64,000 nt of DNA from Candidatus Doudnabacteria bacterium (GTDB taxonomy: Bacteria > Patescibacteriota > Doudnabacteria > UBA920), in the NCBI GenBank assembly GCA_963768175.1, contig CAVYGQ010000001.1:766305-830304 (forward strand). The letters run 5' to 3'. The position numbers and the translations under genes were made by a program. Shown here piece after piece: positions 3,876 to 62,914 of this stretch. The notes under the pieces were generated by a model, which was not told the DNA's origin, searched no databases, and worked only from the letters and a program-made list of their open reading frames with translations. How positions within the stretch are numbered: the stretch's first letter is position 1; the number at the start of each line of letters is the position of its first letter.

Positions 3876-4024
3876 GATTCTAGGTTTAATTTTAAAAAGT
3901 ATGATAGTATCATACTCATCTGCTGTTATTATACCCCCACACTAAATTTTCTGCAATTTTTAGTGTGGGGGTAAATCAAAAACCCCCGCCCTTTACGAGG
4001 GTAAAAGTTATTCACCAACTCCTT

Positions 4025-14078: not shown

Positions 14079-14116
14079 GTGATTAGTGCTTAGTGGTTAG
14101 TGGTTAGTTTGTAGTG
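14079..14116. repeat. degenerate TAGTG-type tandem repeat immediately upstream of the rpoC start
   Basis: gtgattagtgcttagtggttagtggttagtttgtagtg. Confidence 0.7.
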
Positions 14117-14160
14117 CAGGCCATTGGCCTGCCTTGATGTAAATGAAATATTTTCTCTTC

Positions 14161-14259
14161 GGCGTCATTCTGAGGGAGTGCATCCGACCGAAGAATCTCT
14201 AACCTGCATGAGATCCTTCGCCCGCTTGCTTTTACCGATGACGGGCTCAGGATGACGCC
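14161..14259. mobile_element. MITE-like palindromic element copy 1 (99 bp) with 14-bp terminal inverted repeats GGCGTCATTCTGAG/CTCAGGATGACGCC
   Basis: Terminal inverted repeats plus internal gcatccgaccgaag/atgagatccttcg motifs shared with the copies at 25348, 27879, 29169 and 57073. Confidence 0.75.
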
Positions 14260-14345
14260 ACTAGTAGGTGCCCTTTACAACTCTCTCTCTGTGTGCTATT
14301 TTTAGCTGTCCGATTCTTTTCGGAATGCGAAGGAGGTGAATTACA

Positions 14346-14624
14346 GTGGCTAACGTCCACAGACTGCTTGAAAATGTGGGGAAGGAGCTTCGTGCCTCTC
14401 GGGCAGGAGTAGGCATGTATTACGCTGGAATGGGAGCCAGAGAGCAAGGCCAAGTGGTGGAGAAAAATATGGAAAGGACTGAAATCAGGCTGGCAAGTAT
14501 CGCTCTACGGCTGAAACAAATCCAGTACGCCGCCGACATCGGAGACCTCACCGAAATCAAGCGGCTGCTCGCCGAGGAGATCCCGGTCAATGTTCTGCAA
14601 GCCCCGCAAACCCAGCCTGCCTAA
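14346..14624 (+). CDS. hypothetical 92-aa protein (GTG start, AGGAGG RBS), GC-rich cargo of cassette unit 1
   Basis: aggaggtg RBS 8 nt upstream; higher GC than the flanks; no family match recognised. Confidence 0.35.
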   Translation: MANVHRLLENVGKELRASRAGVGMYYAGMGAREQGQVVEKNMERTEIRLASIALRLKQIQYAADIGDLTEIKRLLAEEIPVNVLQAPQTQPA

Positions 14625-14630
14625 CTCGCG

Positions 14631-14735
14631 CCCGCCGGCGCAGACCTGCTTTGGCATCCGTAGATGCCCAAGTGGCGCCGCGGCAACCCCTTTTTTGACC
14701 GTTCAATCCGGTCAGGAGGGGTAATTTTTTTGCCC
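14631..14735 (+). terminator. conserved structured 3' element (nested hairpins cggcgc...ggcatc-cgta-gatgcc...gcgccg) followed by a CCCC...GGGG hairpin and U-tract
   Basis: The copy at 15128..15232 shows compensatory changes (ggcatc/gatgcc versus gacatc/gatgtc). Confidence 0.45.
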
Positions 14736-14847
14736 ACATTTATTTACATATGTAGAGGGCAGTCCGCCATAGCCTCTTTGTCCGACGAAGCTTTAGCGTA
14801 GTCGGATTTATCGGCTTAATTTTGAAATTTGGTATTGAAAATTGTGT

Positions 14848-14930
14848 AGCCGACCCGAATCTACAAATTGTATCCGAATGTTCCGAATTCGTGTCATTCG
14901 CGTGTAATTCGTATATCCGGATCGGTTATT
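14848..14930 (+). promoter_or_regulatory. CGAAT-rich promoter-associated element containing the core GACCCGAATCTACAAA
   Basis: Core shared with 51953..51968 and 62897..62912 (reverse complement); followed by ccgaat/attcg repeats. Confidence 0.45.
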
Positions 14931-15001
14931 GCTCTTTACAAACCTCTCTCTTATGTGCTATTTTTAGCTGCCCGATTCTTTCGGAAGGTGAAGAGGGTTT
15001 A

Positions 15002-15109
15002 TGAAAAAAAACGATTGGCAAATCTTGATATTGTTGATAGTGGTAGTAATCGCGACAATCGTCACAGTTGGTGGGGTGATCCTGTCAGCCATCGCCGTCC
15101 ATCACTGAT
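15002..15109 (+). CDS. 35-aa hydrophobic (single-TM) peptide MKKNDWQILILLIVVVIATIVTVGGVILSAIAVHH
   Basis: ATG with gaagaggg RBS inside the conserved leader of unit 2; not in the track (under 60 aa). Confidence 0.35.
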
Positions 15110-15127
15110 TCGTCGCCTCCCCGCCAC

Positions 15128-15232
15128 GCCCGCCGGCGCAGACCTGTTTTGACATCCAAAGATGTCAGAGCGGCGCCGCGGCAGCCCCTATCCAGTCGTT
15201 CAAACCGACGGAACCTGGGGCTTTTCTTTTTG
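15128..15232 (+). terminator. second copy of the conserved structured 3' element plus U-tract
   Basis: cgcccgccggcgcagacctgttttgacatccaaagatgtcagagcggcgccgcgg ... ggggcttttcttttt. Confidence 0.45.
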
Positions 15233-15258
15233 TAAATTTTTTAAGGTTCTTTGTCTTA

Positions 15259-15347
15259 TCCCCCTCTTAATATAAGAGGGGGTAGGGGGTGATATTTATC
15301 TTTGCGATAATATCCCCTCCTAGCCTCCCCTTATTCTAAGGGGAGGA
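15259..15347. repeat. C/G-rich palindromic element (two hairpins: ccccctctta-ata-taagaggggg and cctcccc-ttattctaa-ggggagg), intergenic, downstream of rpoB
   Basis: Member of the same poly-C/poly-G palindrome family as 4928, 23448, 35291 and 59194. Confidence 0.65.
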
Positions 15348-15408: not shown

Positions 15409-18400
15409 TCTTCTTCTCCTTTTTCGGCTTTTTCTTAACTTCATCATCAAACAAAGAAGTTTCGGCTAAAATCGGCACTACCGGCGGTAAATTAGGCACT
15501 ACGATTTCCGGCTCTTCCGCCGCACTGCTTACCGCACCGTCGCGGCCTAAAAGCTCTACATCCATACACAGCGACTGGAGCTCTTTTACCAATACGCGGA
15601 AAGACTCCGGGATGTTCGGCTTTTTAATAGCTTCCCCTTTTACAATGGCCTCATAAGTTTTTGAACGGCCAACCACATCATCCGATTTTATAGTCAGCAT
15701 TTCCTGCAAAGTGTGCGCCGCGCCATAGCCTTCCAGCGCCCAAACTTCCATTTCCCCAAAACGCTGGCCGCCGAACTGGGCTTTTCCGCCCAAAGGCTGC
15801 TGGGTAATTAGGCTATACGGGCCAGTACTGCGGGCGTGCATCTTGTCGTCAACAAGATGGTGAAGCTTTAAGAAATACATAACTCCCACGGTAACTTTTT
15901 CGTCAAAAGGCTCGCCGGTTTTGCCGTCGTAAAGCGTCACCTTGCCGTCTTGTGGGATGCCGGCCTTTTTAAGCTCTTCTTTAATTTTATGTTCGGGTAC
16001 CCCGTCTAAAACGGGAGTCGCCACTTTATAACCCAGGCGATGGGCGGCCATGCCCATGTGGGTTTCCAAAATTTGACCCAGGTTCATGCGGGACACAACG
16101 CCAAGCGGGTTTAAAATAATATCCACGGGAGTGCCGTCTTCCATAAACGGCAGGTCTTCCACCGGAATAATTTTGGAAATGACGCCTTTGTTGCCGTGGC
16201 GGCCAGCCATTTTGTCGCCGACCTGGACTTTGCGCAAAACCGCGACCGAGACCTGGATGCTGCGAATAACGCCGCTTTGCAGCTTGTCCCCGGCTTCGCG
16301 CGTAAACTGGCGGATGTTAACGACTTTTCCGTATTCGCCGTGCGGCAAGGTAAGGGAAGTATCTTTCACGTCCCGGGACTTTTCGCCGAAAATAACTCTC
16401 AGGAGTTTTTCTTCCGCGGTTAAATCGGTCTCACCTTTGGGCGTGATTTTGCCGACTAAAATATCGCCAGCTTTTATCTGGGCACCAATGCGGATAATGC
16501 CGTTCTCGTCCAAATCCTTTAATTTTTCCTCGCCGACATTGGGAATATCCCGCGTTACCTGCTCCGGCCCGAGTTTGGTATCGCGCACGTCTATTTTAAA
16601 ATCATCAATGTGAATGCTGCTATAACGATCCTGCTGCACCAAGCGTTCGGAAATTAAAACCGCATCTTCGTAGTTGCCTCCCTCCCAAGACATAAAGGCC
16701 ACCAGCACATTTTGGCCCAAAGCCAGCTCGCCGCGATCCGTGGAGGCGCCGTCGGCTAAAATTTCGCCTTTCTTAATAGTCTGTCCCTTATTTACGCGGG
16801 CAATTTGGTTAATAGAGGTAGCGGAATTGGTACGCAAAAATTTCAGCAAAGGGTATTCTTTCTTTTTGCCTTTTTCGCCGACCACAATAATTTTTTCTCC
16901 GGTCACGGAAGTTACGATGCCGTCTTCATCGGCCAAAACCACGGTGCCACTGTCGCGCGCGGCCTTGCCTTCCATGCCCGTGCCGACTATGGGCGCTTCG
17001 GGCTTAATGCAGGACACGGCCTGGCGCTGCATGTTACTGCCCATAAGCGCGCGGTTGGCATCGTCGTGTTCCAAAAACGGAATCAACGAAGTGGTAACGG
17101 AAATAATTTGTTTTGGGGAAACATCCAAATAGTCTATGTCGTCGGTAGAAGCCATGGTCGGCACGGCGCGCACCCGGACGCTGGCTCTTAAATCCGCAAA
17201 GTGCCCGCGGTCATCAAGGTTAATATTGCTTTGGGCGATAATCAGCCGCTCTTCTTCATAAGCGTCCAAATATCTAATTTTATCCGTAACGCGGGGCTTA
17301 ATGCGGATTTCCAAAAGCTGGTGGTTTTTTGCCACTTCTTTGGCTTTGCCTGCGGTAATGGTTTCTCCGGCGGTAACTATTACGTCGCCTTTTTCGTCTT
17401 TAATATCATAAAGGGAAATTTCGTCTGCCAGATCCTTGCCGTCGTTTTTGGCGGATTTTTTTACCACCCGGTAGGGCGTTTCAATAAATCCAAAATTATT
17501 TACCCGCGCGTAAGTGGCCAAGTGGGCTACCAGCCCGATGTTCGGTCCTTCCGGCGTGGTAATCGGGCAAAGCCGCCCGTAGTGGCTGTGGTGCACGTCG
17601 CGGACTTCAAATCCGGCGCGCTCACGGGAAAGCCCTCCCGGCCCCATGGCAGACAGCCTTCTTTTGTGCTCCAGCTCGGCCAAAGGATTAGTCTGATCCA
17701 TAAATTGCGACAGCTGCGAAGAGGAAAAAAATTCCTGCATGGTCGCCACAATCGGCCGGACATGAATAAGCTGGGCCGGAGTCACGGTATCTAAATCCGC
17801 CAAGGACATGCGGTCTTTGGCAATTCTGGCCATGCGGGCAAGGCCTACGCGGAAACGGGCCTGGATAAGTTCGCCTACGGCCCTGACGCGGCGGTTAGCC
17901 AGGTGGTCAATATCATCCGGTGTGCCTTGGGAGTTGTTTAATTTAATTATTTCGCGAACGGCTATGACCAAATCTTCTTTGGTCAAAATCTGCCTATCTC
18001 GCTCTCTTAAAGCCGAGGCGGGGCTTTCGTTACCATCAACGTGCAAACGCTGATTAAACTTATAGCGGCCGACCGCGGAAAGATCATAACGTTCGGTGTT
18101 AAAAAACATTCCGGAAATTAAAGACTTGGCATTGTCTACCGTGGCTAAATCACCGGGTCTGATTCTTTTATAAACTTCCTTATAGCCTTCGTCCGGGTTG
18201 GTAGAGGCGTCCTTTTCCAAAGTGTTTTGGATATATTTGGTGTCCGGGTCGGTATCGACATCGGCAAAAGCGGCTAATATTTCTTCATTGCTGCCTAAGC
18301 CAAAAACTCGCAGTAGCGCGGTTATGGGGATTCTTCTTTTGCGGTCGATTTTAACGCCAATCACGCCGGTGGCGTCGGTATCCAGTTCCAGCCAGGCGCC

Positions 18401-20843: not shown

Positions 20844-21935
20844 TTATTTTCCGGATTTAGTTCTATTATCATCTACGCACAGCATCTGGCAATTTTCCGC
20901 CGTAGTCGCCCCTCCCTTGCTCCACGGTTTGATATGGTCGGCTTCCATTTCGGAAATATCATATTCTTTTTTACAAAACGGGCAAATGCCGTTTTGCCGC
21001 TCATACGCCTCACGCTTCATTTTGTCGGTAAAAGCACGGATTGAAAGGTATTTTTCTTGTCTCGTTAAAATATATGGGTAAATACCGGATTTTTTAGTTA
21101 CATCTTCGTCCTGCATTAACTCTTTAATTTCGGCTTCCAGTTTGCCGACATTCTGTTTCTTGTCTTTAAATTCGTTATACAGTTCGCCCCACTCTACACT
21201 ATTCATTTCCCGGCGATAATTCGTAAAAGTTTTTCGCACCCAATCAATTACTTCTTGAAAATACTCCCATAACTCATCGGCATTTTTATTATGCTGATGC
21301 TTAGCCATGTAATCTTCTATTTTGCCGTTGTTAATCCATGAAAGCGCGGTTTCCAAATATTCCTGCCGAATTGGCGAACCGCTTACCAACTGCCCGCCGT
21401 CGTTGGCCAGCAGATACGCCGCGCAATGCGTTTTGCTGAACTTTAGTTTTGCGTCACTAAGCCACGGCCCTGTGTAAACCGCGTTACGGATTTCCTGGTC
21501 GGTAAGTTTTTCGCCGGCGATGTTAATAATCCTGAACCAATCCAGCCGCTCTTTATCCGTGCCCTCGCAAAAATAAATCATCAGCTCGTAATCCAAAATC
21601 CGGTTTTGTTCTTCGTCGGTTAGATTATGAAAATACATCTCGTTAAGTGAAAAATCACCGGCAACATATTGCCCGATGCTAATGGTGCGCTGTTGGCCGT
21701 CCAAAACTTCAAAATTGCCGGAATCATTTTTCATCCAGTACATTACATTAAGCGGGAAGCCATTTTTGATGGTTTTAATAACGGCATTGCGCTGCTGCTC
21801 CTTATAAACAAACTCCCGCTGATATTTTGGCCGGATATCCAGCTTGCCGCTAAAAGCTACTACGCCCTCCTCGGCGCTGTCTTTATAACCAGCAATTACT
21901 TTTCGTATAGTGATGCGATGTAAATCTATTTTCAT
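20844..21935 (-). CDS. DUF262 (ParB/Srx-like, DGQQR motif) plus C-terminal HNH nuclease; GmrSD-like candidate restriction component
   Basis: LDGQQRTISI motif; HNH signature CPFCKKEY...ADHIKPWSKGG...NCQMLCVDDNRTK. Confidence 0.7.
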   Translation of the reverse strand: MKIDLHRITIRKVIAGYKDSAEEGVVAFSGKLDIRPKYQREFVYKEQQRNAVIKTIKNGFPLNVMYWMKNDSGNFEVLDGQQRTISIGQYVAGDFSLNEMYFHNLTDEEQNRILDYELMIYFCEGTDKERLDWFRIINIAGEKLTDQEIRNAVYTGPWLSDAKLKFSKTHCAAYLLANDGGQLVSGSPIRQEYLETALSWINNGKIEDYMAKHQHNKNADELWEYFQEVIDWVRKTFTNYRREMNSVEWGELYNEFKDKKQNVGKLEAEIKELMQDEDVTKKSGIYPYILTRQEKYLSIRAFTDKMKREAYERQNGICPFCKKEYDISEMEADHIKPWSKGGATTAENCQMLCVDDNRTKSGK

Positions 21936-21936
21936 A

Positions 21937-23004
21937 CTAATTGATTACTTTCTTATTTTTTATGATAACTCGCGCGTAAGGAACGTCAACGGCTCCATTT
22001 GTAATCATGTACAAATCACCATCAACAGCTCCTCTTTTTTGAATTTCTTTCCTGTATTTTTTGTGGTTTTCTTTATAGGGCTTAACCCCAATTTCTATTC
22101 CCGAATTGGATATTCCCAAACCGATAATCTCAAATTGCTCCGGATTATATTTATCAAGAAAGGTAATAGGCACCCCTATAGCACCATTGTAGTCTGCCGG
22201 GATTTCAGAAGTTTTATTAACGTTAATAGCATCAAAATTTTCATACTTGGGATATTCTGTGGGAGTATATTTTTTATAAAGTAAAAAATTTTCATGACGC
22301 TCTTCGTAATCAAGGTTTGTAAACCAACGCACGCCTTTAACGCGAATATACTTGTGCCCATCCGCATCAACACGATAACTTGCCGCGTTCAGAGGATAAT
22401 CATCTGGTACCTGAAATTCACGATCGCCGCTATGGATACTCGCTCCAAGCCACATATTATTTTCTTTTATTAACTTAAAACACTCTTTATAAGTAATTGC
22501 ATTTACATTTCCAATTATCAAAAATTTCTTATTGTACTCCACCAACTGCGCAATATATTCTCTTAACAAAGAAAACGGCGGGTTGGTTACCACGATGTCG
22601 GCTTCTTTCAGCAGTTCAATACACTCCTGGCTTCGGAAGTCACCGGTGCCTATCATTTTGGTCATAAAATCATGCGGGTCGGGAACACGGCTGCCCTTTT
22701 TGCCGCCGGTGTATTCCAGTTTATATGGCGGTTCGTGGGTAAAAAGGTTGGCTTCTTTGTAATGAGTGGCAATGAGTTTCTTAAGTCCCAGTTCCGCAAA
22801 ATTTATGCTAAAATATTTCACAAAATTGCTTTCTTTCGGGTCGTCGCAATTACAAAACACCACTTTACCGCGAAACTGGTCTTTGTAGTGCTTAAGCTCG
22901 TTTTCAATATCGGCAAGCTGGGTATAAAATTCGTCTTTTTTTGCCCTGCTAGCCGTATGTAGATTTTTGTTTAAAAATTTCTTTTCCATGATTATTTTTA
23001 CCAA
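21937..23004 (-). CDS. putative N6-adenine DNA methyltransferase (gamma-like motif order: DEFYTQ motif X, then NPPF motif IV)
   Basis: DIVVTNPPFSLL (NPPF); N-terminal DEFYTQL resembling the (G/D)xFYTP AdoMet-region motif; lies upstream of the DUF262-HNH gene. Confidence 0.6.
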   Translation of the reverse strand: MVKIIMEKKFLNKNLHTASRAKKDEFYTQLADIENELKHYKDQFRGKVVFCNCDDPKESNFVKYFSINFAELGLKKLIATHYKEANLFTHEPPYKLEYTGGKKGSRVPDPHDFMTKMIGTGDFRSQECIELLKEADIVVTNPPFSLLREYIAQLVEYNKKFLIIGNVNAITYKECFKLIKENNMWLGASIHSGDREFQVPDDYPLNAASYRVDADGHKYIRVKGVRWFTNLDYEERHENFLLYKKYTPTEYPKYENFDAINVNKTSEIPADYNGAIGVPITFLDKYNPEQFEIIGLGISNSGIEIGVKPYKENHKKYRKEIQKRGAVDGDLYMITNGAVDVPYARVIIKNKKVIN

Positions 23005-23104: not shown

Positions 23105-24136
23105 ATGGACAATGTTATTGAAGTGCAAAACCTAAAAAAAGTCTACCCCTCGCCCAAAGGCAAACAGCCACTGGAAGCTTTAAAGGGTGTGTCTTTTTTT
23201 GTGGAAAAAGGCGAGGTCTTCGGCATTTTGGGACCCAACGGCGCGGGGAAGACCACGACTCTGGAAATTATAGAATGTTTAAAACCGCAGACTTCCGGGG
23301 AAGTTGCGGTTTTGGGGTTTGATAATGTTAAATCTCCCGATGATATAAAAAAACGCATCGGCGTGCAGCTGCAGTCCAGCCAATATTTGCATCATTTATC
23401 TTTAGGGGAACTGCTGGATTTGTTTGCCTCATTTTATGGAAATAAATCACCCCTCCCTAACCCTCCCCCTCCAGGGGAGGGAATAAACACCGCAATAAGT
23501 TCCTCCCCCTTGAGGGGGGAGGCTAGGTGGGGGTGGACAAAGGATGATAAAAAAAACCTATTACAGCTAGTGAGCTTAGAAGACAAAGAACATGCCGAAT
23601 TTGCCAACCTTTCCGGCGGGCAAAAGCAGCGCTTCACCATTGCCACCTCCTTGGTGCATGAGCCACAAATTTTGTTTTTGGACGAACCCACCACCGGGCT
23701 TGACCCGAAAGCGCGGCGCGACATGTGGCAACTGGTTAAGACCATTAATGCCCGCTCAATCACTATTGTCTTAACCACGCACTACATGGAAGAGGCGGAA
23801 TTTTTATGCCACCGCGTGGCCATTATGGACCAGGGGAAAATTTTGGAAATTGACGAGCCAAAAAAATTAATAGACCGCCTGTCGGAAACCACGCAGATTT
23901 CCTTTTTTACGGACAGCCGCCTTGACCAAAACTTTTTCCGCACATTGCCGGAAATAAAAAAAATCCACGCCAGCTATCCCAAAGTCATTTTGGAAATCAC
24001 TTCTTTGGATAAAATTTCCGCGGTGGTAAATTTATTAAAACAGCACAGCATAGTTTTTTATGGATTTACCGTCAAAACCGCCACTTTGGAAGACGTCTAT
24101 TTGAAACTTACGGGAAAGGAGTATGAAGAAGAATAA
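23105..24136 (+). CDS. ABC transporter ATP-binding protein with an in-frame 30-aa insertion encoded by a palindromic element
   Basis: Walker A GPNGAGKTTT; signature LSGGQKQR; Walker B ILFLDEPTTGLD; the insertion NKSPLPNPPPPGEGINTAISSSPLRGEARWGW sits between the Q-loop region and the signature. Confidence 0.9.
   Translation: MDNVIEVQNLKKVYPSPKGKQPLEALKGVSFFVEKGEVFGILGPNGAGKTTTLEIIECLKPQTSGEVAVLGFDNVKSPDDIKKRIGVQLQSSQYLHHLSLGELLDLFASFYGNKSPLPNPPPPGEGINTAISSSPLRGEARWGWTKDDKKNLLQLVSLEDKEHAEFANLSGGQKQRFTIATSLVHEPQILFLDEPTTGLDPKARRDMWQLVKTINARSITIVLTTHYMEEAEFLCHRVAIMDQGKILEIDEPKKLIDRLSETTQISFFTDSRLDQNFFRTLPEIKKIHASYPKVILEITSLDKISAVVNLLKQHSIVFYGFTVKTATLEDVYLKLTGKEYEEE
23448..23536. repeat. full-length C/G-rich palindromic element (89 bp; terminal inverted repeats cacccctccctaa / ctaggtgggggtg; two internal hairpins) inserted in-frame in the ABC ATPase gene
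   Basis: ccctcccc-ctcca-ggggaggg and cctccccc-ttga-gggggagg hairpins; GC composition far above the host gene. Confidence 0.75.
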
Positions 24137-24149
24137 TTAACCGACACCA

Positions 24150-24220
24150 ATACGCAAATTGGACGCGAATGATGCTAATTCGTATCATTAGCGTGACATT
24201 CGTAGATTAGCGTCGCCTAT
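24150..24220 (+). promoter_or_regulatory. conserved roughly 70-bp CGAAT-rich leader ending GTCGCCTATATG (start codon included); paralogous to 54450..54527
   Basis: About 85% identical to the ruvB leader; contains the palindromes acgaattcgt and gctaat-tcgtatc-attagc. Confidence 0.5.
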
Positions 24221-24964
24221 ATGAAATCTTTTATTGAATTATTCAAGGCAAATTTCAAAATGTTCTACCGGGAAAAGGAAGGCTTTTACTGGACGGTGTT
24301 AATGCCAACTTTTATTTACATCGCCCTGTCCATTTTGCCGATTGGCAAAACCATTGGCGTCAATTTAAAATACTCCAGCTACGTGCTCCCGGGCATTATT
24401 GCCATGACTATTATGCAAGGCGGCATTTACAGCCTGGCTTATTGGATGGTGGACTTAAAGTCCCGCGGCATTATTAAGCGCCTGCTGGCCACCCCGCTTA
24501 AGCAGTGGCAACTGGCCTTGAGCCTGGTTGGCGCCAGGCTGGTAGTGGTAATTTTCCAGGTAATTATTCTAACCCTGCTGGGGATTTTAATTTTTCATGC
24601 CAGCTTTGCCGGCAACGTAACATCCACGCTTGTTTTGGTGCTCTTGGGCGGCGCGATTTTTTTGCTCTGCGGCCTGCTCATTTCCACTTTCGCCAAAAGC
24701 TATGACGCCGCCGCGCCGATTACCTCGGCTATTGCCCTGCCGCTGACTTTTTTGGGAAACATTTTTTACCCCATAGAAGCACTGCCTAAGGCCTTGCAAA
24801 TTTTTGCGCGCCTTTTGCCCATTACCTATCTGGCCGACGGCCTGCGCCAGGCATACTTGTATCCGTTTAACTTTGCCGTGATTGGCAAAGATATTTTTAT
24901 TCTTGCTTTGTGGCTGATAGGGATGCTGGTTGTGACCATATCGCTATTTAGATTAAAAGAATAG
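24221..24964 (+). CDS. ABC-2 family transporter permease
   Basis: Six hydrophobic segments; follows the ABC ATPase in the same operon. Confidence 0.75.
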   Translation: MKSFIELFKANFKMFYREKEGFYWTVLMPTFIYIALSILPIGKTIGVNLKYSSYVLPGIIAMTIMQGGIYSLAYWMVDLKSRGIIKRLLATPLKQWQLALSLVGARLVVVIFQVIILTLLGILIFHASFAGNVTSTLVLVLLGGAIFLLCGLLISTFAKSYDAAAPITSAIALPLTFLGNIFYPIEALPKALQIFARLLPITYLADGLRQAYLYPFNFAVIGKDIFILALWLIGMLVVTISLFRLKE

Positions 24965-25347: not shown

Positions 25348-25433
25348 GGCGTCATTCTGAGCCCGAATGCATCTGAAGGCGAAGAATCTTTTATGAGATC
25401 CTTCGGTCGGATGCACTCCCTCAGGATGACACC
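25348..25433. mobile_element. MITE-like element copy 2 (86 bp)
   Basis: ggcgtcattctgag ... ctcaggatgacacc terminal inverted repeats; internal atgagatccttcggtcggatgcac. Confidence 0.75.
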
Positions 25434-30566: not shown

Positions 30567-32660
30567 ATGAACAGATTTGTCTTAAAATCCAAGTTTCGGC
30601 CTGCCGGCGACCAGCCAAAAGCCATAGAAGGCCTGCTTAAATCGCTTAAAGCCAAACGCCGCTACCAAACACTTTTAGGCGTTACCGGGAGCGGCAAGAC
30701 TTTTACCATGGCCAATATTATAGAGAAGATCCAGAAACCCACCTTAATTATTAGCCACAATAAAACTTTGGCCGCCCAACTTGCCGCGGAATTTGAGGAA
30801 TTTTTCCCCGAAAATGCCGTACACTATTTTGTTTCCTATTATGACTACTACCAGCCCGAAGCCTATATCCCCCGCTCCGACACTTACATAGAAAAAGACA
30901 CCCAAATAAACGAAGAAATAGACCGCCTTAGGAATGCGGCCACGCAGTCGCTGCTGTCGCGCAAAGACGTCTTAATTGTGGCCAGTGTCTCCTGCATTTA
31001 CGGCCTGGGCAACCCGGCCAACTATTTGGAGCTGTCCTTAAACGTCAAAAAGGGCCAAAGCTTAAAGCGCGACAAGTTGCTAAGGCGGCTAACGGATTTG
31101 CAATATCACAGAAATGATATTGATTTACAAAGAGCCACGTACCGCGTGCAGGGCGACGTGGTGGAAATTATTTTGTCTTCCGAAGACACGGTTATCCGCA
31201 TGGATTTCTTTGGCGATGTTTTGGAAAACATTGAACGGCGGGATGTGGTCACCGGCCACAAAATTGAAAATCTTGATGAATTTACCATTTTCCCGGCCAA
31301 GCATTTTGTCACGCCGGAAGAAAAGCTAAAAGAAGCCGCGGAAAATATCCGCCTGGAGCTTACCGGCAGGGTAGCGGAGCTTAAAGCCCAGGGAAAAATT
31401 TTGGAAGCCGCCAGGCTGGAGCAAAGGACAAATTTTGATTTGGAAATGCTGACCAACACGGGCTTCGTGGCCGGCATAGAAAATTATTCCCGAGTGCTGG
31501 AAGGCCGCGAGCCGGGCAGCCCGCCATCCACTCTGATTGATTATTTTCCCGACGATTTTTTGCTGTTTTTGGACGAATCGCACCAAAGTGTGCCGCAAAT
31601 CGGCGCTATGTATGAAGGCGACAAATCCCGCAAAACCACTTTGGTAGACTACGGCTTCCGCCTGCCCAGCGCCTTGGACAACCGCCCGCTGAAATTTGAC
31701 GAATTTGAAAAAAAAATCAATCAGGTAATTTTTGTGTCCGCCACGCCGGCGGAGTTTGAAATTGAAAGAAGCCTAACGCAAAAAGACACGAAATTTATAA
31801 CTAAGTCCAGACGCACCGAAACCGAGCAAAGCATAATAGACGCCAGGCCGAAATTAAAACAAATGGACCCGCCGTCCATTGTGGAGCAAATTATCCGCCC
31901 CACCGGGCTGATTGATCCCACCATTGAAATCAAGCCCATAAAAAACCAAGTGGATGACTTAATAGAGCGCATAAAACAGCGCGCTAACAAGCACCACCGT
32001 GTGTTGGTAGCCACGCTGACTAAGCGCATGGCCGAAGAGTTGGCCGAATATTTAAAAGAAGAAGGCATAAAAGTGCAGTATCTGCACTCGGACGTGGATA
32101 CTTTTGAACGTTTGGAAATTTTGCGCGATTTGCGTTTGGGGGTTTACGATGTTTTGGTAGGCATCAACCTTTTGCGCGAAGGCCTGGACTTGCCCGAAGT
32201 CAGCCTGGTGGCAATACTGGATGCCGACAAAGAAGGCTTTTTGCGCAGTGAGACATTTTTTATGCAAATGATGGGCCGGGCCGCCCGCCACATGGAAGGA
32301 CACGTGGTAATGTATGCCGACAGGATTACAGGCAGCATGAAACGGGCCATAGACGAAACCACCCGCCGTCGCGCCCTGCAGGAATCCTATAACAAAAAAC
32401 ACGGGATTACGCCCAAGTCCATCCAAAAAGCCATTGCCGATACCCGTTTGGCCGGCAGTAAGAAAGAAATTGAAGACGAAGAGGAACGCAAAATTGACCC
32501 CGCCAAAATGACTAGAGAAGAAATTAAGTTTTACGTTTCCGAACTGCAGGAACAAATGAACCTCGCCGCCCAGAACTTGGAATTCGAGTTGGCCGCCCGC
32601 CTCCGCGACCGCATTGCTGAAATAAAAAAGCTGAGCAAATTGAGAGGCAAAAAAATATAG
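30567..32660 (+). CDS. uvrB: excinuclease ABC subunit B
   Basis: Walker [16 protein letters not shown]; [10 protein letters not shown] beta-hairpin region; helicase motifs; C-terminal UVR domain. Confidence 0.95.
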
Positions 32661-34738: not shown

Positions 34739-35473
34739 TTAAATATCAAAATTTTTAAGCTTTTCTTTCCGCTCCACAACTTCCGCTTCCGTAATATCAC
34801 TCGACTTAATTTTGCAATGTTCAAAAATTTGCCGTTCTATTTGCCGCAATGAGTTTTCAAAATTATCACGCTCTTGAGTATCATTTTTATGATGCTCATA
34901 CCTCTTCCTTAAATCCGCAAATCTTTCTTCCAAACTTATTATCCCCTTGGGACCCACGCGATCATCCGCGTACTGGCAAATTTTTTTGCCAAAATCCGGG
35001 CTTTGTGCATTATCCGGCCCTTGATCAAAGCCCACGCAATCCACTAATTCTCTAATCCTCTGATTTACTCCCAGTTCTGCCACTATTTTTACCGTCGCGT
35101 TATGGCTGCCCGTGCCGTATTTTTTGATAAACTCCTGCTTTACATTTTCCCAAAAAATTTGATCTTCTGGTGGCTTTGCAAAAACTGCCGGATACAACTC
35201 TGCGGTTTGGTTTAAATCAAACTTAACAATATTTCCCATGTCATGCAGCAGGCAAGCGGCCACGATATCATCACGGTTAATCCGTATTATTCCCTCCCCC
35301 TTGCGGGGAGGGTTAGGGAGGGGGGTAAAATGCTCACAAATCATCTCCGCCACCGCCGCCACAGTCAGCTGGTGCTCCATTAGCTGCGGCATAATTTGGT
35401 ATTTTTTGTAGATTTCTAAAATGTTCACCCTGTTAGAAATTAATGTTAAATTTAATGCGATTCGCAAATTCAA
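34739..35473 (-). CDS. HD-domain phosphohydrolase with an in-frame palindromic-element insertion (NPPRKGEGIIRI)
   Basis: H...LLHDMGN metal-binding motif; element at 35291..35326. Confidence 0.6.
   Translation of the reverse strand: MNLRIALNLTLISNRVNILEIYKKYQIMPQLMEHQLTVAAVAEMICEHFTPLPNPPRKGEGIIRINRDDIVAACLLHDMGNIVKFDLNQTAELYPAVFAKPPEDQIFWENVKQEFIKKYGTGSHNATVKIVAELGVNQRIRELVDCVGFDQGPDNAQSPDFGKKICQYADDRVGPKGIISLEERFADLRKRYEHHKNDTQERDNFENSLRQIERQIFEHCKIKSSDITEAEVVERKEKLKNFDI
35291..35326. repeat. C/G-rich palindromic element (hairpin ccctcccc-cttgc-ggggaggg plus a terminal-inverted-repeat-like ttagggagggggg) in-frame in the HD gene
   Basis: Same family as 23448..23536. Confidence 0.7.
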
Positions 35474-44906: not shown

Positions 44907-44976
44907 ATATGTTAGTTCTTGCCCCCACACCAAAACGCATTATTAAGCGTTCTAATTTAAAGGCAGTTATTTAATT
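44343..44976. repeat. second copy of the 634-bp near-identical segment (paralog B)
   Basis: See 42316..42949. Confidence 0.85.
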
Positions 44977-45082
44977 TTATTTTGGTTTCTCTCACCCCCC
45001 ATACTTAATTTTGGTGTGGGGGTGAATTTCAAAGGTTTCGCACTAATTTTGGCGCGAACCTAAATTTAAAACTTGTGACTAT

Positions 45083-51813: not shown

Positions 51814-51949
51814 GGGAATTAACTAATAACTAATAATTGATAACCCATAACCCTACAAGTCAGGTTATAAATTATTAATTATCTATTATTTGTTGATTTT
51901 TTAGTATATTCTTTTTTGCCGAAGACGTCAATGCAGTGTAAAATAAGAT

Positions 51950-52044
51950 AGCGACCCGAATCTACGAATGCCATCCGAATTATCCGAATGGGTCTAATTA
52001 GGATTATTCGGGTATAATTCGTCAAATTCGGGTCGGCCAACCAG
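51950..52044 (+). promoter_or_regulatory. CGAAT-rich promoter-associated element with core GACCCGAATCTACGAA immediately upstream of tsaE
   Basis: gcgacccgaatctacgaatgccatccgaattatccgaatggg... Confidence 0.5.
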
Positions 52045-52045
52045 T

Positions 52046-52513
52046 ATGGGAAAAAATGTCAAAATTACCCTAAGCCAAATACCGCAAAAAGCCAAAGAAA
52101 TCGCCCAAAAACTAAAAAGCGGGGAAATTTTTGCCCTGGTCGGCCCTTTGGGCAGCGGCAAAACCACTTTTGTCCAAGCTTTGGGTAAGGAGTTAAAAAT
52201 TAAGCAAAAAATTACCAGTCCAACATTCATTCTGCTGCAGGCTTTTCCGTTTAAACTTAACCCCGCTAAAAATCGAACGGCTAAAGGCGCCCGCTGGCGC
52301 GATGCGCGCCTGACTTCTAACGGAATAAAGAACAAAAAAGAAATTTGGCTTTATCACTTGGACTTATACCGCACTAAAAACTTTAACGAAATCAAGGCCT
52401 TGGGGCTTTTGGAAGTCTGGGGCAGGCCGGATACCGTAACGCTAATTGAATGGGCCGACAAAATTAAAAAATATCTGCCGAAAAAAAGTAAAATTATCAG
52501 ATTCAAAAATTAA
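52046..52513 (+). CDS. tsaE: tRNA threonylcarbamoyladenosine biosynthesis ATPase TsaE (YjeE) with a GC-rich in-frame insertion of about 25 aa
   Basis: P-loop GPLGSGKTTF; SPTFIL; YHLDLYR; IEW; insertion LNPAKNRTAKGARWRDARLTSNGIK encoded by the palindrome ggcgcccgctggcgcgatgcgcgcc. Confidence 0.75.
   Translation: MGKNVKITLSQIPQKAKEIAQKLKSGEIFALVGPLGSGKTTFVQALGKELKIKQKITSPTFILLQAFPFKLNPAKNRTAKGARWRDARLTSNGIKNKKEIWLYHLDLYRTKNFNEIKALGLLEVWGRPDTVTLIEWADKIKKYLPKKSKIIRFKN
52286..52310. repeat. GC-rich palindromic insertion core within tsaE
   Basis: ggcgcccgctggcgcgatgcgcgcc (about 80% GC) inside an AT-rich gene, at a loop position relative to TsaE homologs. Confidence 0.55.
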
Positions 52514-54291: not shown

Positions 54292-54449
54292 AAGACATCT
54301 CTTACAAGGGCTGTCTTTTTTAAAAAACCGAAAGCTTTATCAGCGCTACCGGCACCCCGATTAGCGGGCTAAAAATGCCGTCCGTTAAAACCCAATAAAT
54401 TAAGATGCAATTAGCTAAGCGGCTGCCAATATAGTAAAATAACAATACC

Positions 54450-54527
54450 GATACAAATATACGAATTGGACGCGAATAATACGAATTCGTATCATTAGTG
54501 TGGCATTCGTGTATTAGTGTCGCCAAT
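54450..54527 (+). promoter_or_regulatory. conserved leader ending GTCGCCAATATG, paralogous to 24150..24220, directly upstream of ruvB
   Basis: See 24150..24220; the track ORF start 54498 is upstream read-through. Confidence 0.5.
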
Positions 54528-55568
54528 ATGATCACATCTAACCAACAACAAACTGCCCCCCTCTCCGCCCAGCCGGAGGATCGGGAAGAAATAATTATAG
54601 AGCAGACTTTGCGGCCGCAAAGCCTACTTGAGTATGTGGGGCAAACGGGGATAAAAAATAACCTGAAAATTATAATGCAGGCCGCCAAGCAGCGCGGCGA
54701 GGTTTTGGAACATCTTTTATTTTACGGCCCGCCGGGCTTGGGCAAAACCACGCTGGCCTTTATTGTCGCGCGTGAAATGGGCGGCAACATTAAAGTCACT
54801 TCCGGCCCGGCCATCGAACGCGCCGGCGATTTAGCCAGCCTGCTTACCAATTTAAGCGAGGGCGACGTGTTGTTTATAGATGAAATCCACCGCCTGAACA
54901 AAGCCGTGGAAGAAGTCTTGTATCCTGTCATGGAAGACTATGTTTTGGATATAGTTTTAGGCAAAGGCCCGGGCGCGCGCAGCATAAGAATGGATTTGCC
55001 AAAATTTACGCTCATTGGCGCCACCACCAGAATCGGCCTTTTATCTAGCCCCCTGCGCGACCGCTTTGGCGCCACCTACCGTTTGGAGTATTACCCGGAA
55101 GAAGATTTGCAAACCATCATTAGCCGCAACAGCAAAATATTGCAGGCAAAAATTGCCGATGACGCGGCAAAGGAACTTTCCCGGCGCTCGCGCTTTACCC
55201 CGCGCATTGCCAACCGCCTGCTCAAGCGGGTAAGGGATTTTGCCCAAGTCCGCGGCCATGATACAATTAATTTACAAACGGCGAAAGCTGCCTTAGAACT
55301 ATTGGAAATAGACAGCCAAGGGCTGGACAAGAACGACCGCCGGATTTTGGAAACTTTAATCCATAAGTTCTCCGGCAAGCCCGTGGGCCTAAATACCCTG
55401 GCGGCGGCCACGGGCGAAGAAGAAGACACCATAACCGACGTCTATGAACCTTTCTTAATCCGCATGGGAATGATTGCCAAAACTCCAAAGGGCCGCCAAG
55501 CCACGGAAGCGGCATACAGGCATTTGGGGGTAACACCTCCAACTCAAGGGCAACAAACCATCCTTTAA
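54528..55568 (+). CDS. ruvB: Holliday junction branch-migration ATPase RuvB
   Basis: Walker [15 protein letters not shown]; DEIHRL; sensor and arginine-finger motifs; start ATG inside the conserved leader. Confidence 0.92.
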
Positions 55569-55569
55569 C

Positions 55570-55710
55570 AAATCCGAAACACGAAATACGAAATTCGAAA
55601 CAAATCCGAATTTCTAAATTCAAATGTTTTAAGCCCAGGTTTTGAATCTCTGATTTATAATTTAGATATTGTTTCGGATTTCGATATTTGGATTTCGGAT
55701 TTAAATCTAT
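55570..55710. repeat. nested imperfect palindrome (about 45-bp arms of AAATCCGAA/TTCGGATTT-type repeats around an inner ttcaaa...tttgaa palindrome)
   Basis: aaatccgaaacacgaaatacgaaattcgaaacaaatccgaattt ... tgtttcggatttcgatatttggatttcggattt. Confidence 0.6.
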
Positions 55711-55920: not shown

Positions 55921-56030
55921 CCGATATACCAATTCATACGGATGAGACTGATAATACGGATTACTGGCACCAAAGTGTATCAGTATTATCCGTATCGTCA
56001 GTATTACAATCCGTATATCAGTATCATAAA
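55921..56030. repeat. CCGTAT/ATACGG and CAGTAT short-motif repeat region with inverted copies
   Basis: catacggatgagactgataatacggattactg ... cagtattatccgtatcgtcagtattacaatccgtatatcagtatcat. Confidence 0.55.
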
Positions 56031-61730: not shown

Positions 61731-62825
61731 TTAATTTGTTTCCACTTCCTCTTCTTCCAGCGCAGGAGTTAAGGTTATATGCTGGGCAGGCATTTCCAAG
61801 GGATAAGTGGTAGTAATAAACGTCTGAAATTTGCCTTGCAAATATTTAAGCAAAAATGTGCGCCGGGTTTCGTCCAGTTCGGAAAGCACGTCGTCTAAAA
61901 GTAAAACCGGCTTTTCTTCCCCACGGCTTAAAAATTCCAACTCCAAAATTTTTAAAGCCAGCACTTGGCTGCGCAATTCGCCCCGGGAAGAAAATGGGGA
62001 CAAAAACAGGCCGTCGCTTTTTAAGGAAAAATCGTCGCGGTGGGGGCCAACCAGGCAAGTAGCCAAAAACGCCTCTTTTTTGGCGAAAGTTGCCAGCTTC
62101 TCTCTGAAACTTTGGGTTATTTCTTCCGAAGTGTCCCCTGATAGGGTATCATAAGCCACTTCCACGGGCCGATGGAAACCAGAAATGGTAGTGTAAATTT
62201 CCGCCATACTGGTATTTAAAAAGCTAATAAGCTTTTTTCGCTCCAAAATTATGCCGCTGCCAAGAGCAATTAGCTGTTCGTTCCATTCCGCCAAATCTTC
62301 CCCTTGGCTCCTCCCAGCTTTTATATCCTGCAAAAGGCGGGTTTTTTGGAATAAGGCTTTTTTATATTTTCCCAGCGCGTCCAAGTATTCCAAATTCTTT
62401 TGAGCTAACACCATATTTAAATACTTGCGGCGCGATTCTGGCGGTTTGTTAAACATGTCCACGTCCGTAGGGTCAAATATTACCACGCTTAAAAAGCCCT
62501 GGGCATCACGGCGTTTCTTTTTTATTCCGTCAATTAAAAAATTGGCGTAAATTTTGTCCCGCCTTTCCAAATAAATGGCCAAAGAGTGAGTTTGACCTTC
62601 CTTTTCCAAAACCAATTTCAGTTCAAGGCTGGCCGCATCCTTTAAAAAAATAAATTCCGTGTCGTCGCGAAAAGACTTAAACAAGGAGGCAAAATATACT
62701 GACTCTAGCAAATTGGTTTTCCCTACTGCGTTTGGACCTGTTAGTACTACAATGTCGCTCTTTATTTCTATGTTTAATTCTGGATAATTACGGAAGTTCT
62801 TTATCTCAATATTTTTTATTCTCAT
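61731..62825 (-). CDS. recF: DNA replication and repair protein RecF
   Basis: Walker A VLTGPNAVGKTNLLES; SMC-like signature; Walker B LLLDDVLSELD. Confidence 0.92.
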   Translation of the reverse strand: MRIKNIEIKNFRNYPELNIEIKSDIVVLTGPNAVGKTNLLESVYFASLFKSFRDDTEFIFLKDAASLELKLVLEKEGQTHSLAIYLERRDKIYANFLIDGIKKKRRDAQGFLSVVIFDPTDVDMFNKPPESRRKYLNMVLAQKNLEYLDALGKYKKALFQKTRLLQDIKAGRSQGEDLAEWNEQLIALGSGIILERKKLISFLNTSMAEIYTTISGFHRPVEVAYDTLSGDTSEEITQSFREKLATFAKKEAFLATCLVGPHRDDFSLKSDGLFLSPFSSRGELRSQVLALKILELEFLSRGEEKPVLLLDDVLSELDETRRTFLLKYLQGKFQTFITTTYPLEMPAQHITLTPALEEEEVETN

Positions 62826-62912
62826 ATAGCGGCCCTAATAACCGAATACATCCGAATGCCCCGACTTGGGCCCATTTCGGGTCGTTCGGGCACCGTTCGT
62901 AGATTCGGGTCA
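62826..62912 (-). promoter_or_regulatory. CGAAT-rich promoter-associated element with core GACCCGAATCTACGAA (minus-strand sense) upstream of recF
   Basis: Reverse complement of caccgttcgtagattcgggtcag; ends ...ccgctatATG. Confidence 0.5.
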
Positions 62913-62914
62913 GT

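Follow-up and report, generated by a model that had tools for sequence, protein, structure and literature searches.

A 64-kb stretch of a Candidatus Doudnabacteria genome (assembly GCA_963768175.1, contig CAVYGQ010000001.1, positions 766,305–830,304; hereafter the window) contains five copies of a long imperfect palindrome, dispersed beside unrelated genes. We consider these copies to be open reading frame (ORF)-less foldback derivatives, or landing pads, of stem-loop elements that carry a GxxExxY gene, and thus probably selfish insertions that are co-transcribed as hairpins; we give this reading a probability of roughly 0.62. The source-genome sequence examined comprised the window and two short contigs.

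An original prediction, made from the letters of the window, had described a CGAAT-rich promoter-proximal element with a 16-mer core at three sites. That repetition holds: GACCCGAATCTACGAA occurs exactly at 51953–51968 (+) and at 62896–62911 (−), and with one mismatch (CTACAAA) at 14852–14867 (+); the first position agrees with the prediction, while the other two had each been placed one base too far along (62897–62912 and 14853–14868). At up to three mismatches the window has five matches against 0.27 expected, a number reached in none of 100 shuffles, so that the motif is indeed more frequent than composition predicts. The remaining two of these matches are inverted forms within the copies at 24140 and 14850. 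The inverted core cattcgtagatt, expected in two conserved leaders, is exact in the copy at 24140–24221 (24199–24214, minus strand; two mismatches to the 16-mer), while the copy at 54447–54528 has cattcgtgtatt in its place, with two mismatches. The density of CGAAT/ATTCG in the window peaks solely at the palindrome sites. What the prediction had missed is that a single long imperfect palindrome spans each site; the 16-mer is not a linear motif and corresponds to the outer end of one palindrome arm, comprising its first two modules (GACCCGAAT-CTACGAAT).

A hidden Markov model (HMM) built from the five sites recovered all five copies in the window with nhmmer (E = 1e-18 to 1e-23) and no further match. 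The palindromes are 80–90 bp long, and each arm consists of four modules of 8–11 nt with the consensus GAYNCNAAT, the other arm being the inverted array. Across 21 copies from the window and elsewhere, the consensus reads CGACCCGAAT-CTACGAAT-nnnAYCCGAAT-GAYnCGAAT / ATTCGGGTC-ATTCGGATG-nnATTCGnAn-ATTAGGGTCG, with AAT/ATT invariant in the arm modules. In short-form palindromes the arms join at the apex CGAATTCG, while long forms have variable centres. RNAalifold run on a MAFFT alignment mispaired the modules, and the four-module structure was therefore written by hand; in this structure 79% of cells pair over the 21 copies, compared with 25–41% when the partner is slid, and compensatory changes are found at several pairs. 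One position of the stem holds a G.A mismatch in 18 of the 21 copies (CGAAT opposite ATTAG), and only a single arm has CTAC, which separates its modules 1 and 2. The arms are therefore individually constrained, and the element has an intrinsic left/right asymmetry. Predicted hairpins range from −22 to −40 kcal/mol, with z of about −4 in three window copies and weak values in two. The top and bottom strands fold about equally well, and the idea of a strand-specific RNA was rejected on this ground.

Four of the five copies end at a start codon, as had been predicted for all of them: those of tsaE (52046), the ABC-2 permease (24221), ruvB (54528), and recF (62825, minus strand). The exact 16-mer stands at the 5′ end of the copy upstream of tsaE (51950–52041, +; E = 1e-19), which folds at −39.9 kcal/mol (z −3.9). 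This copy, with a paired core at approximately 51952–52037, begins 7 nt past the tsaE −10 box, and some 10 nt separate its end from the ATG. A subfamily, B, is formed by the copies at 24140–24221 (+) and 54447–54528 (+; z −4.2), which are 81% identical, apex included. The former fills the gap between the stop codon of an ABC ATPase (24134–24136) and the permease ATG, and the latter extends from 8 nt past a conserved TAAAAT box to a point 6 nt short of the ruvB ATG. The copy at 62824–62914 (−) contains the exact 16-mer in a decayed hairpin (z −0.3) and fills the gap from the dnaN stop codon to the recF ATG. The fifth copy (14849–14930, +; E = 2e-23, z −4.1), a short form with the apex CGAATTCG, is located in the 1.3 kb that separate rpoB from rpoC, with a small cassette-like unit on either side; it adjoins no start codon and stops about 70 nt short of the ATG at 15001. 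Iterated nhmmer searches recovered a sixth source-genome copy, which lies upstream of rpmH a short way beyond the window (L136, 176–281), is 82% identical to the recF copy, and has the same apex. Because unlinked solo copies thus form pairs with a common apex (24140/54447 at 81%, 62824/rpmH at 82%), the ORF-less form itself appears to have been copied.

Gene calls are disturbed at these sites. The rpmH call (L136, 3–218) runs through the element and yields 72 aa instead of 45, and the source annotation begins the ABC-2 permease (24221–24964) at its second methionine (P0121, 234 aa instead of 247); the element explains such recurrent annotation errors. Separately, the window encodes an EcoRI-family adenine methyltransferase (E = 2.5e-136) that adjoins a GmrSD_N+HNH protein (20844–23004), with no EcoRI-like endonuclease seen. 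A link between this methylase and the apex CGAATTCG was considered and rejected, as GAATTC is neither depleted nor enriched in the window (13 occurrences vs. about 18 expected).

Syntenic loci were compared in relatives with 73–91% RecF identity; the RecF and ABC-permease relatives are named Candidatus Doudnabacteria or Patescibacteria. Between dnaN and recF the window has 89 nt and L135 has 3 nt, with near-identical coding flanks: the junction reads ...CTTA|ATATATGAGAATAAAAAATATT in L135 and ...GTTAAACT-element-TATATGAGAATAAAAAATATT in the window, while other relatives have different palindromes there. In L138 and L139 the ABC ATPase gene overlaps that of the permease (ATGAATAG), which represents the empty state, and the region upstream of tsaE in L132 is likewise without the element. 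At the ABC junction each gene retains its own copy of the formerly overlapping segment, which may hint at a target duplication. The predicted duplicated, mobile-like module beside unrelated housekeeping genes is thus borne out by insertion polymorphism, and also by its presence in several lineages of the candidate phyla radiation (CPR), described below. Another selfish-element presence/absence polymorphism in this clade concerns UvrB, which in L137 (15908–19588; 1226 aa) is interrupted by an intein that includes a LAGLIDADG endonuclease; the window UvrB (30567–32660, 697 aa) has none.

The same ABC ATPase/permease junction contains a gene of 131–136 aa in L137 and L140–L144, encoding a GxxExxY protein (PF13366 PDDEXK_3; TIGR04256, E = 6e-27). 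In L142, the left side runs TAA-ACCCCC-GATACCAAT-ATGCCAAT-CTTATGCTAAT-AATGCGAAC-ATG, from stop codon through arm to GxxExxY start, and the right side runs TAG-CATTTTCGCC-AGATTTGCAT-ACGTTTGCAT-ATTAGCATC-ATATTTT-ATG, from GxxExxY stop through arm to permease start. Equivalent arms, again spanning from stop codon to next ATG, enclose a different GxxExxY gene upstream of fructose-bisphosphate aldolase (L145–148) and another in L127. The left arm in L145, ATGCGAATCTACAAATTGCGAAT, includes GCGAATCTACAAAT, the core of the original prediction. GxxExxY-flanking arms pair with each other (z −4 to −7.6 relative to shuffled right arms), and once the ORF is taken out their modules line up one by one with those of the solo copies. 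In a search of about 300 kb, the solo-family HMM matched the GxxExxY arms of L145 (E = 8e-8) and L142 (E = 9e-5). ORF-bearing relatives with homologous arms encode a predicted GxxExxY PD-(D/E)XK nuclease, not a recognised transposase.

Several observations weigh against deriving the window copies from such elements. No target-site duplication was detected at the insertion sites, where the longest common flank word averages 3.6 nt vs. 3.6 nt in mismatched flank pairs, a comparison in which short duplications may be hidden by divergence; and the closest relative, at 91% RecF identity, is too distant for exact insertion boundaries to be read. The window copies are 20–40% diverged, two have weak hairpins (z −0.3 and −1.7), and there is no sign of recent activity. 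No GxxExxY gene was found in the 64 kb by tblastn with 120 GxxExxY proteins, nor any transposase or integrase among its ~55 ORFs. The GxxExxY loci inspected comprise four independent ones and two viral ones; the arms of L137 are matched weakly by the solo HMM (E of about 0.1), and the two viral genes have tandem modules downstream of the ORF with no clear inverted partner. Finally, the direction of events could be either loss of the ORF from the apex or insertion of an ORF into a pre-existing palindrome.

The second direction amounts to an alternative of its own, which we consider unlikely but worth weighing: the palindromes would be independent repeats resembling miniature inverted-repeat transposable elements (MITEs) or repetitive extragenic palindromic (REP) sequences, the GxxExxY genes would be homing-endonuclease-like invaders of their apices, and the solo copies would be empty alleles and not deletion derivatives. 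The ORF sits exactly at the apex in four of four loci, and the short-form apex CGAATTCG is a perfect 8-bp palindrome, a plausible site for a dimeric PD-(D/E)XK nuclease. Solo copies outnumber ORF-bearing ones by 5–6 to 0 in the window, and those that share an apex were copied as such. Against this order of events, the ORF start, N-terminal codons, and stop overlap arm modules (L142, L145, L127), which suggests long co-evolution instead of recent invasion, and the heterogeneous centres of long-form solo copies could be deletion scars. Under either direction the palindrome itself is an insertion.

The GxxExxY protein was examined by structure prediction. Residues D71, E81, and K83 are invariant, and the AlphaFold2 model (mean predicted local distance difference test score, pLDDT, of 87.7) matches PD-(D/E)XK nucleases generically, including lambda exonuclease, Cas4 SSO0001, tRNA-splicing endonuclease, Hjc, and I-Bth0305I. 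By its modelled fold, the protein is a predicted minimal PD-(D/E)XK nuclease. Searches of PHROGs and PADLOC gave nothing for GxxExxY past weak Cas4 similarity, and a sequence search of solved structures gave no informative relative. PDDEXK_3 is recorded as a family of unknown function with multiple transfers (PMC3424549). Our literature search found nothing on MITE or REP elements of CPR bacteria or on the function of GxxExxY. The family is very common: its profile retrieved 7,042 clusters (50% identity) from the full library at E ≤ 1e-3.

Many of the matches are long proteins, RecG, GatB, enolase, and GT4 glycosyltransferases, whose reading frames contain the PDDEXK_3 domain as an internal insertion unaccompanied by an intein domain (P0411, P0422, P0461, P0455, P0414, P0399). 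These domains are bordered by periodic peptides, e.g., SNPSRIESNESRI...FEKDSSSFEENSRNE, which, judged from the protein sequences, look like translated arms. P0461 has in addition an insert of 27 aa (SNGSRMNSNESRIFEKDSIKLEKDSRAS) resembling a solo palindrome in translation. We propose more tentatively, and at somewhat worse than even odds, that GxxExxY proteins serve as the nucleases for a class of stem-loop mobile elements that has so far gone unrecognised, the arms being the sites that the nuclease would recognise. Such elements would home to the junctions of stop and start codons, to the 5′ ends of transcripts, and even to the interior of reading frames (RecG, GatB, enolase), and would shed self-spreading ORF-less copies. 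If so, much of the small-palindrome load of CPR genomes and many protein insertions would be explained.

Beyond the source genome, a scan of species-representative genomes with the bare 16-mer returned mostly chance matches; among the matches listed, six of 118 loci are real copies. These lie in Komeilibacteria, Saccharibacteria, the metagenome-assembled genome (MAG) FK3.bin112, and one MAG that appears mislabelled. A longer pattern matched ten metagenome contigs and no viral contig, and searches of phages, plasmids, and viral contigs gave no matches to the element. Iterated nhmmer brought the family to ~32 copies. Approximately 20 of 25 non-redundant copies end a few nucleotides from the ATG of a real ORF, and about 12 of the 25 start 0–5 nt past a co-directional stop codon. 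The downstream genes are unrelated and diverse, and include tsaE, recF, ruvB, rpmH, ABC and MacB-type permeases, DnaQ-like exonucleases, ftsA, groES, groEL, grpE, secE, nusG, and rplK. In three large intergenic regions (tsaE, ruvB, rpmH-dnaA) a copy lies within 5–11 nt of the ATG, for which we roughly estimate a chance of ~1e-3 from the gap lengths. Short spacers are therefore not enough to account for the nearness to start codons.

This position had led to the proposal that the element is a promoter/operator module, with its CGAAT repeats serving as a binding-site array for a global regulator. Some features agree with such a model: short motifs recur at about one helical turn in inverted arrays, TATAAT is present in one copy (52014–52019), and TrmB-family regulators are common in these genomes. 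The placement of the copies argues otherwise. Two of the five window copies are operon-internal, spanning from stop codon to next start (dnaN-recF and ABC ATPase-permease), and others lie downstream of native promoters. The predicted tsaE promoter (51916–51944, +; TTGCCG-17-TAAAAT) ends 7 nt before the stem, and its TGTAAAATAAG box is conserved in L132, where the sequence upstream of tsaE is TGTAAAATAAGGCTACTATG without the element, compared with TGTAAAATAAGATAGC-element-GGCCAACCAGTATG in the window. Similarly, the TAAAAT within AATATAGTAAAATAA (54435–54440, +) is conserved upstream of ruvB in L132, and the element begins 8 nt downstream; in relatives the ruvB slot is occupied by other hairpins. 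Lying downstream of native −10 boxes or inside operons, the element is therefore not the promoter.

Nor did the promoter model find support within the element. No conserved −35/−10 was detected inside it; promoter-like matches occur at shuffle level and are not conserved across copies, and the proximal-arm hexamers vary. Orientation is consistent with random placement, as the CTAC arm is distal to the gene in 11 cases and proximal in seven (p = 0.48); an HMM-based count of 17:3 was discarded as unreliable for a palindrome. The set of flanked genes differs among close relatives, which argues against a regulon and so against the global-regulator array, and the same arms flank a nuclease gene. 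We therefore regard the promoter/operator model as highly improbable. Protein binding to the modules is possible, and the best candidate binder would be the element-associated GxxExxY nuclease, not a global regulator. Regarding start signals in general, Shine-Dalgarno (SD)-like motifs precede almost no gene in the window. Widespread leaderless promoters were also considered and set aside, given that −10-like hexamers at 0–35 nt from ATGs show no sharp peak; our claim is confined to leaders in the window being short and SD not being used.

A further possibility is that the hairpin is a host-selected cis-acting RNA, acting as an mRNA-stabilising stem at the 5′ terminus or between cistrons, an RNase III site, or a device for translational coupling, with a selfish origin being secondary. 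RNase III sites are known between phage T7 cistrons and in 23S rRNA intervening sequences. The predicted stems are stable and their pairing is kept by compensatory changes, and the position 3–11 nt before the ATG is fixed, also in the three large intergenic regions noted above. Moreover, the tsaE and ruvB stems begin 7–8 nt past the −10 box, where the transcript 5′ end is expected, and copies precede highly expressed genes (groESL, rplK, nusG, secE), so that the element is compatible with expression. Host selection fits poorly, however, with presence/absence varying among close relatives at housekeeping genes, with the two decayed window stems, and with equal folding of both strands and the occurrence of both orientations. 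The G.A mismatch and the one-armed CTAC are kept whatever the direction of the gene, which points to recognition of the element itself and not to a role in mRNA, and Rfam gave no match in the window at the gathering threshold and only noise at E up to 10 over 51900–52100. Taken together, we find a host-selected RNA improbable, and the observations do not require one.

The attC sites of integrons are imperfect palindromes before cassette ORFs, and one window copy does lie between two cassette-like units; stem-loop TIGR arrays are common in Patescibacteria and are made of palindromic stems (bioRxiv 10.64898/2026.09.09.750476). It is nonetheless extremely improbable that the copies are TIGR-Tas stem-loop guide RNAs or attC-type sites of an integron-like cassette system. 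A tigRNA is defined by box C and box D around two unpaired spacers, arrayed beside a tas (Nop-domain) gene (bioRxiv 10.64898/2026.09.09.750476), whereas no copy here has a box C (RUGAUGA), one has a box D (CUGA), the element is paired up to the apex, and the copies are single and dispersed beside housekeeping genes instead of arrayed. For attC, neither strand has R′′ (RYYYAAC)/R′ (GTTRRRY) core sites. No Nop/Tas protein, integrase, or other recombinase was found among the window ORFs, and the window has no tRNA gene.

Returning to the reading of the copies as solo derivatives or landing pads of GxxExxY elements, the observations suggest a Patescibacteria-wide family of small selfish insertions in which the window copies would be the solo, non-autonomous form and full-length members would carry the ~131-aa GxxExxY gene at the apex of the stem. 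Both forms would occupy the few bases from a stop codon, or from a −10 box/transcription start, to the next start codon. Given its position just before the start codon, the element is expected to be transcribed with the downstream gene. The arms would then fold back as an RNA stem, and possibly as a DNA cruciform or hairpin, so that the stop codon, start codon, and 5′ end on either side would stay next to each other and host expression may survive. Because this genome does not use Shine-Dalgarno sequences, no ribosome-binding site would be destroyed by an insertion. The module arrays may be the sites recognised by the nuclease of the element, by which ORF-bearing and solo copies alike would be mobilised.

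Comparison with known systems places the element near, but not within, several classes. As in MITEs, the copies are small and non-coding with terminal inverted repeats, are numerous (five in the window, a sixth outside, and >20 on other contigs), and have empty sites. The Correia elements of Neisseria, which are MITEs with a stable foldback, share these properties along with insertion polymorphism, and they too are found near gene starts; they are co-transcribed as hairpins, as the copies here would be, and likewise have a longer coding relative whose ends match theirs. Unlike Correia elements and other MITEs, the element here has no detectable target duplication, is palindromic over its whole length with tandem 8–11-nt modules, has no conserved internal promoter, and has as its coding relative a 131-aa predicted PD-(D/E)XK nuclease and no known transposase. 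Rickettsia palindromic elements (RPEs) are likewise palindromic selfish repeats that a reduced genome tolerates where space is short, and the in-frame GxxExxY domains with their periodic arm-like peptides (in RecG, GatB, enolase, and glycosyltransferases) recall them; they differ in that all five window copies are intergenic and in having no sequence similarity. We know of no RPE linked to a nuclease gene. Since MITE membership fails on the target-site duplication, we describe the copies as MITE- or RPE-like and class them as neither.

Other systems share parts of the design. The intervening sequences of 23S rRNA (PF05635 ORFs) have a long inverted-repeat stem with an optional small ORF in the loop, but the elements here lie outside rRNA and have a different ORF family and arm sequence. 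The seg/mob homing genes of phage T4 are small nuclease genes wedged between conserved genes, a situation resembling the presence/absence polymorphism at the ABC junction (L137 and L140–144 vs. L138 and L139), although the insertion sites here are many and unrelated. To our knowledge, homing endonuclease genes have neither long inverted arms nor ORF-less derivatives. REP sequences and bacterial interspersed mosaic elements (BIMEs), mobilised by the HUH-type REP-associated tyrosine transposases (RAYTs), are extragenic imperfect palindromes without target duplication, often intercistronic, and have a conserved asymmetric tetranucleotide, comparable to CTAC/GTAG on one arm here. They measure 20–40 bp, in contrast to 80–90 bp here, and GTAG is internal in our element, not 5′ of the stem. 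No Y1_Tnp match was found among the window ORFs, the associated protein having instead the PD-(D/E)XK fold.

CPR/Patescibacteria genomes are tiny and tightly packed, yet several hairpin-repeat families are found here exactly at gene starts. The association with GxxExxY gives a very common family of unknown function a testable candidate role, that of a selfish stem-loop nuclease, and offers an account of how a genome can accept insertions where genes overlap or are tightly coupled, and perhaps within genes as well. Should the hairpins undergo processing or make mRNA more stable, they would also be relevant to the way in which CPR bacteria that do not use SD sequences organise operon expression.

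The window contains additional palindromes and repeats. Just past the ruvB stop codon is a 133-bp palindrome (55570–55702) with CGAAA/TTTCG modules and the same foldback-of-subrepeats design; it may be a distant relative of the family, and the family HMM gave no match to it. A 69-bp palindrome with ATACGGAT/ATCCGTAT modules follows downstream of ruvB (55936–56004). An AT-rich, ORF-less palindrome of 82 bp (51817–51898) abuts the start codon of a DHH-family gene, and in L130 a 23S_rRNA_IVP (PF05635) gene at a gene junction (15782–16211) is flanked by 33-nt inverted repeats (GGTTATAAATTAT..TAATTATC). These may constitute a second pair of solo and ORF-bearing forms, a likeness made less certain by the AT-rich composition.

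GC-rich hairpins of the form CCTCCCC-N5-GGGGAGG occur at 23448–23535, 35293–35311, and approximately 15260–15340 (three vs. 0.1 expected), and lie in-frame in the ABC ATPase ORF, where they encode ...PLPNPPPPGEGI...SPLRGEARWG..., and in an HD-domain ORF. Similar hairpins precede ruvB in L130 and L132. They are a second palindromic repeat family, tolerated inside genes. An exact 26-mer, GTCATYCTGAGGGAGTGCATCCGACC, is found at the unlinked positions 14164–14189 (+) and 25405–25430 (−), with none expected, as part of larger GC-rich hairpins, and Komeilibacteria L069 has a similar sequence ahead of a half-element.

The rpoB-rpoC gap (14100–15250; 1.3 kb) contains two plus-strand cassette-like units antisense to rpoBC, whose small ORFs encode 92 aa and a hydrophobic peptide of ~35 aa. 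The units have a conserved leader with a strong GAAGGAGG Shine-Dalgarno, unusual in an SD-less genome, and a conserved GC-rich tail. In relatives, the gap is 860 nt with a 57-aa ORF (L137) or 90 nt (L138). Hairpins with common CCCCCACAC...GTGTGGGGG stems are found at 3932–3973 and 44922–45022, one of them terminator-like after an ArsR-family gene, and may form a further small repeat family.

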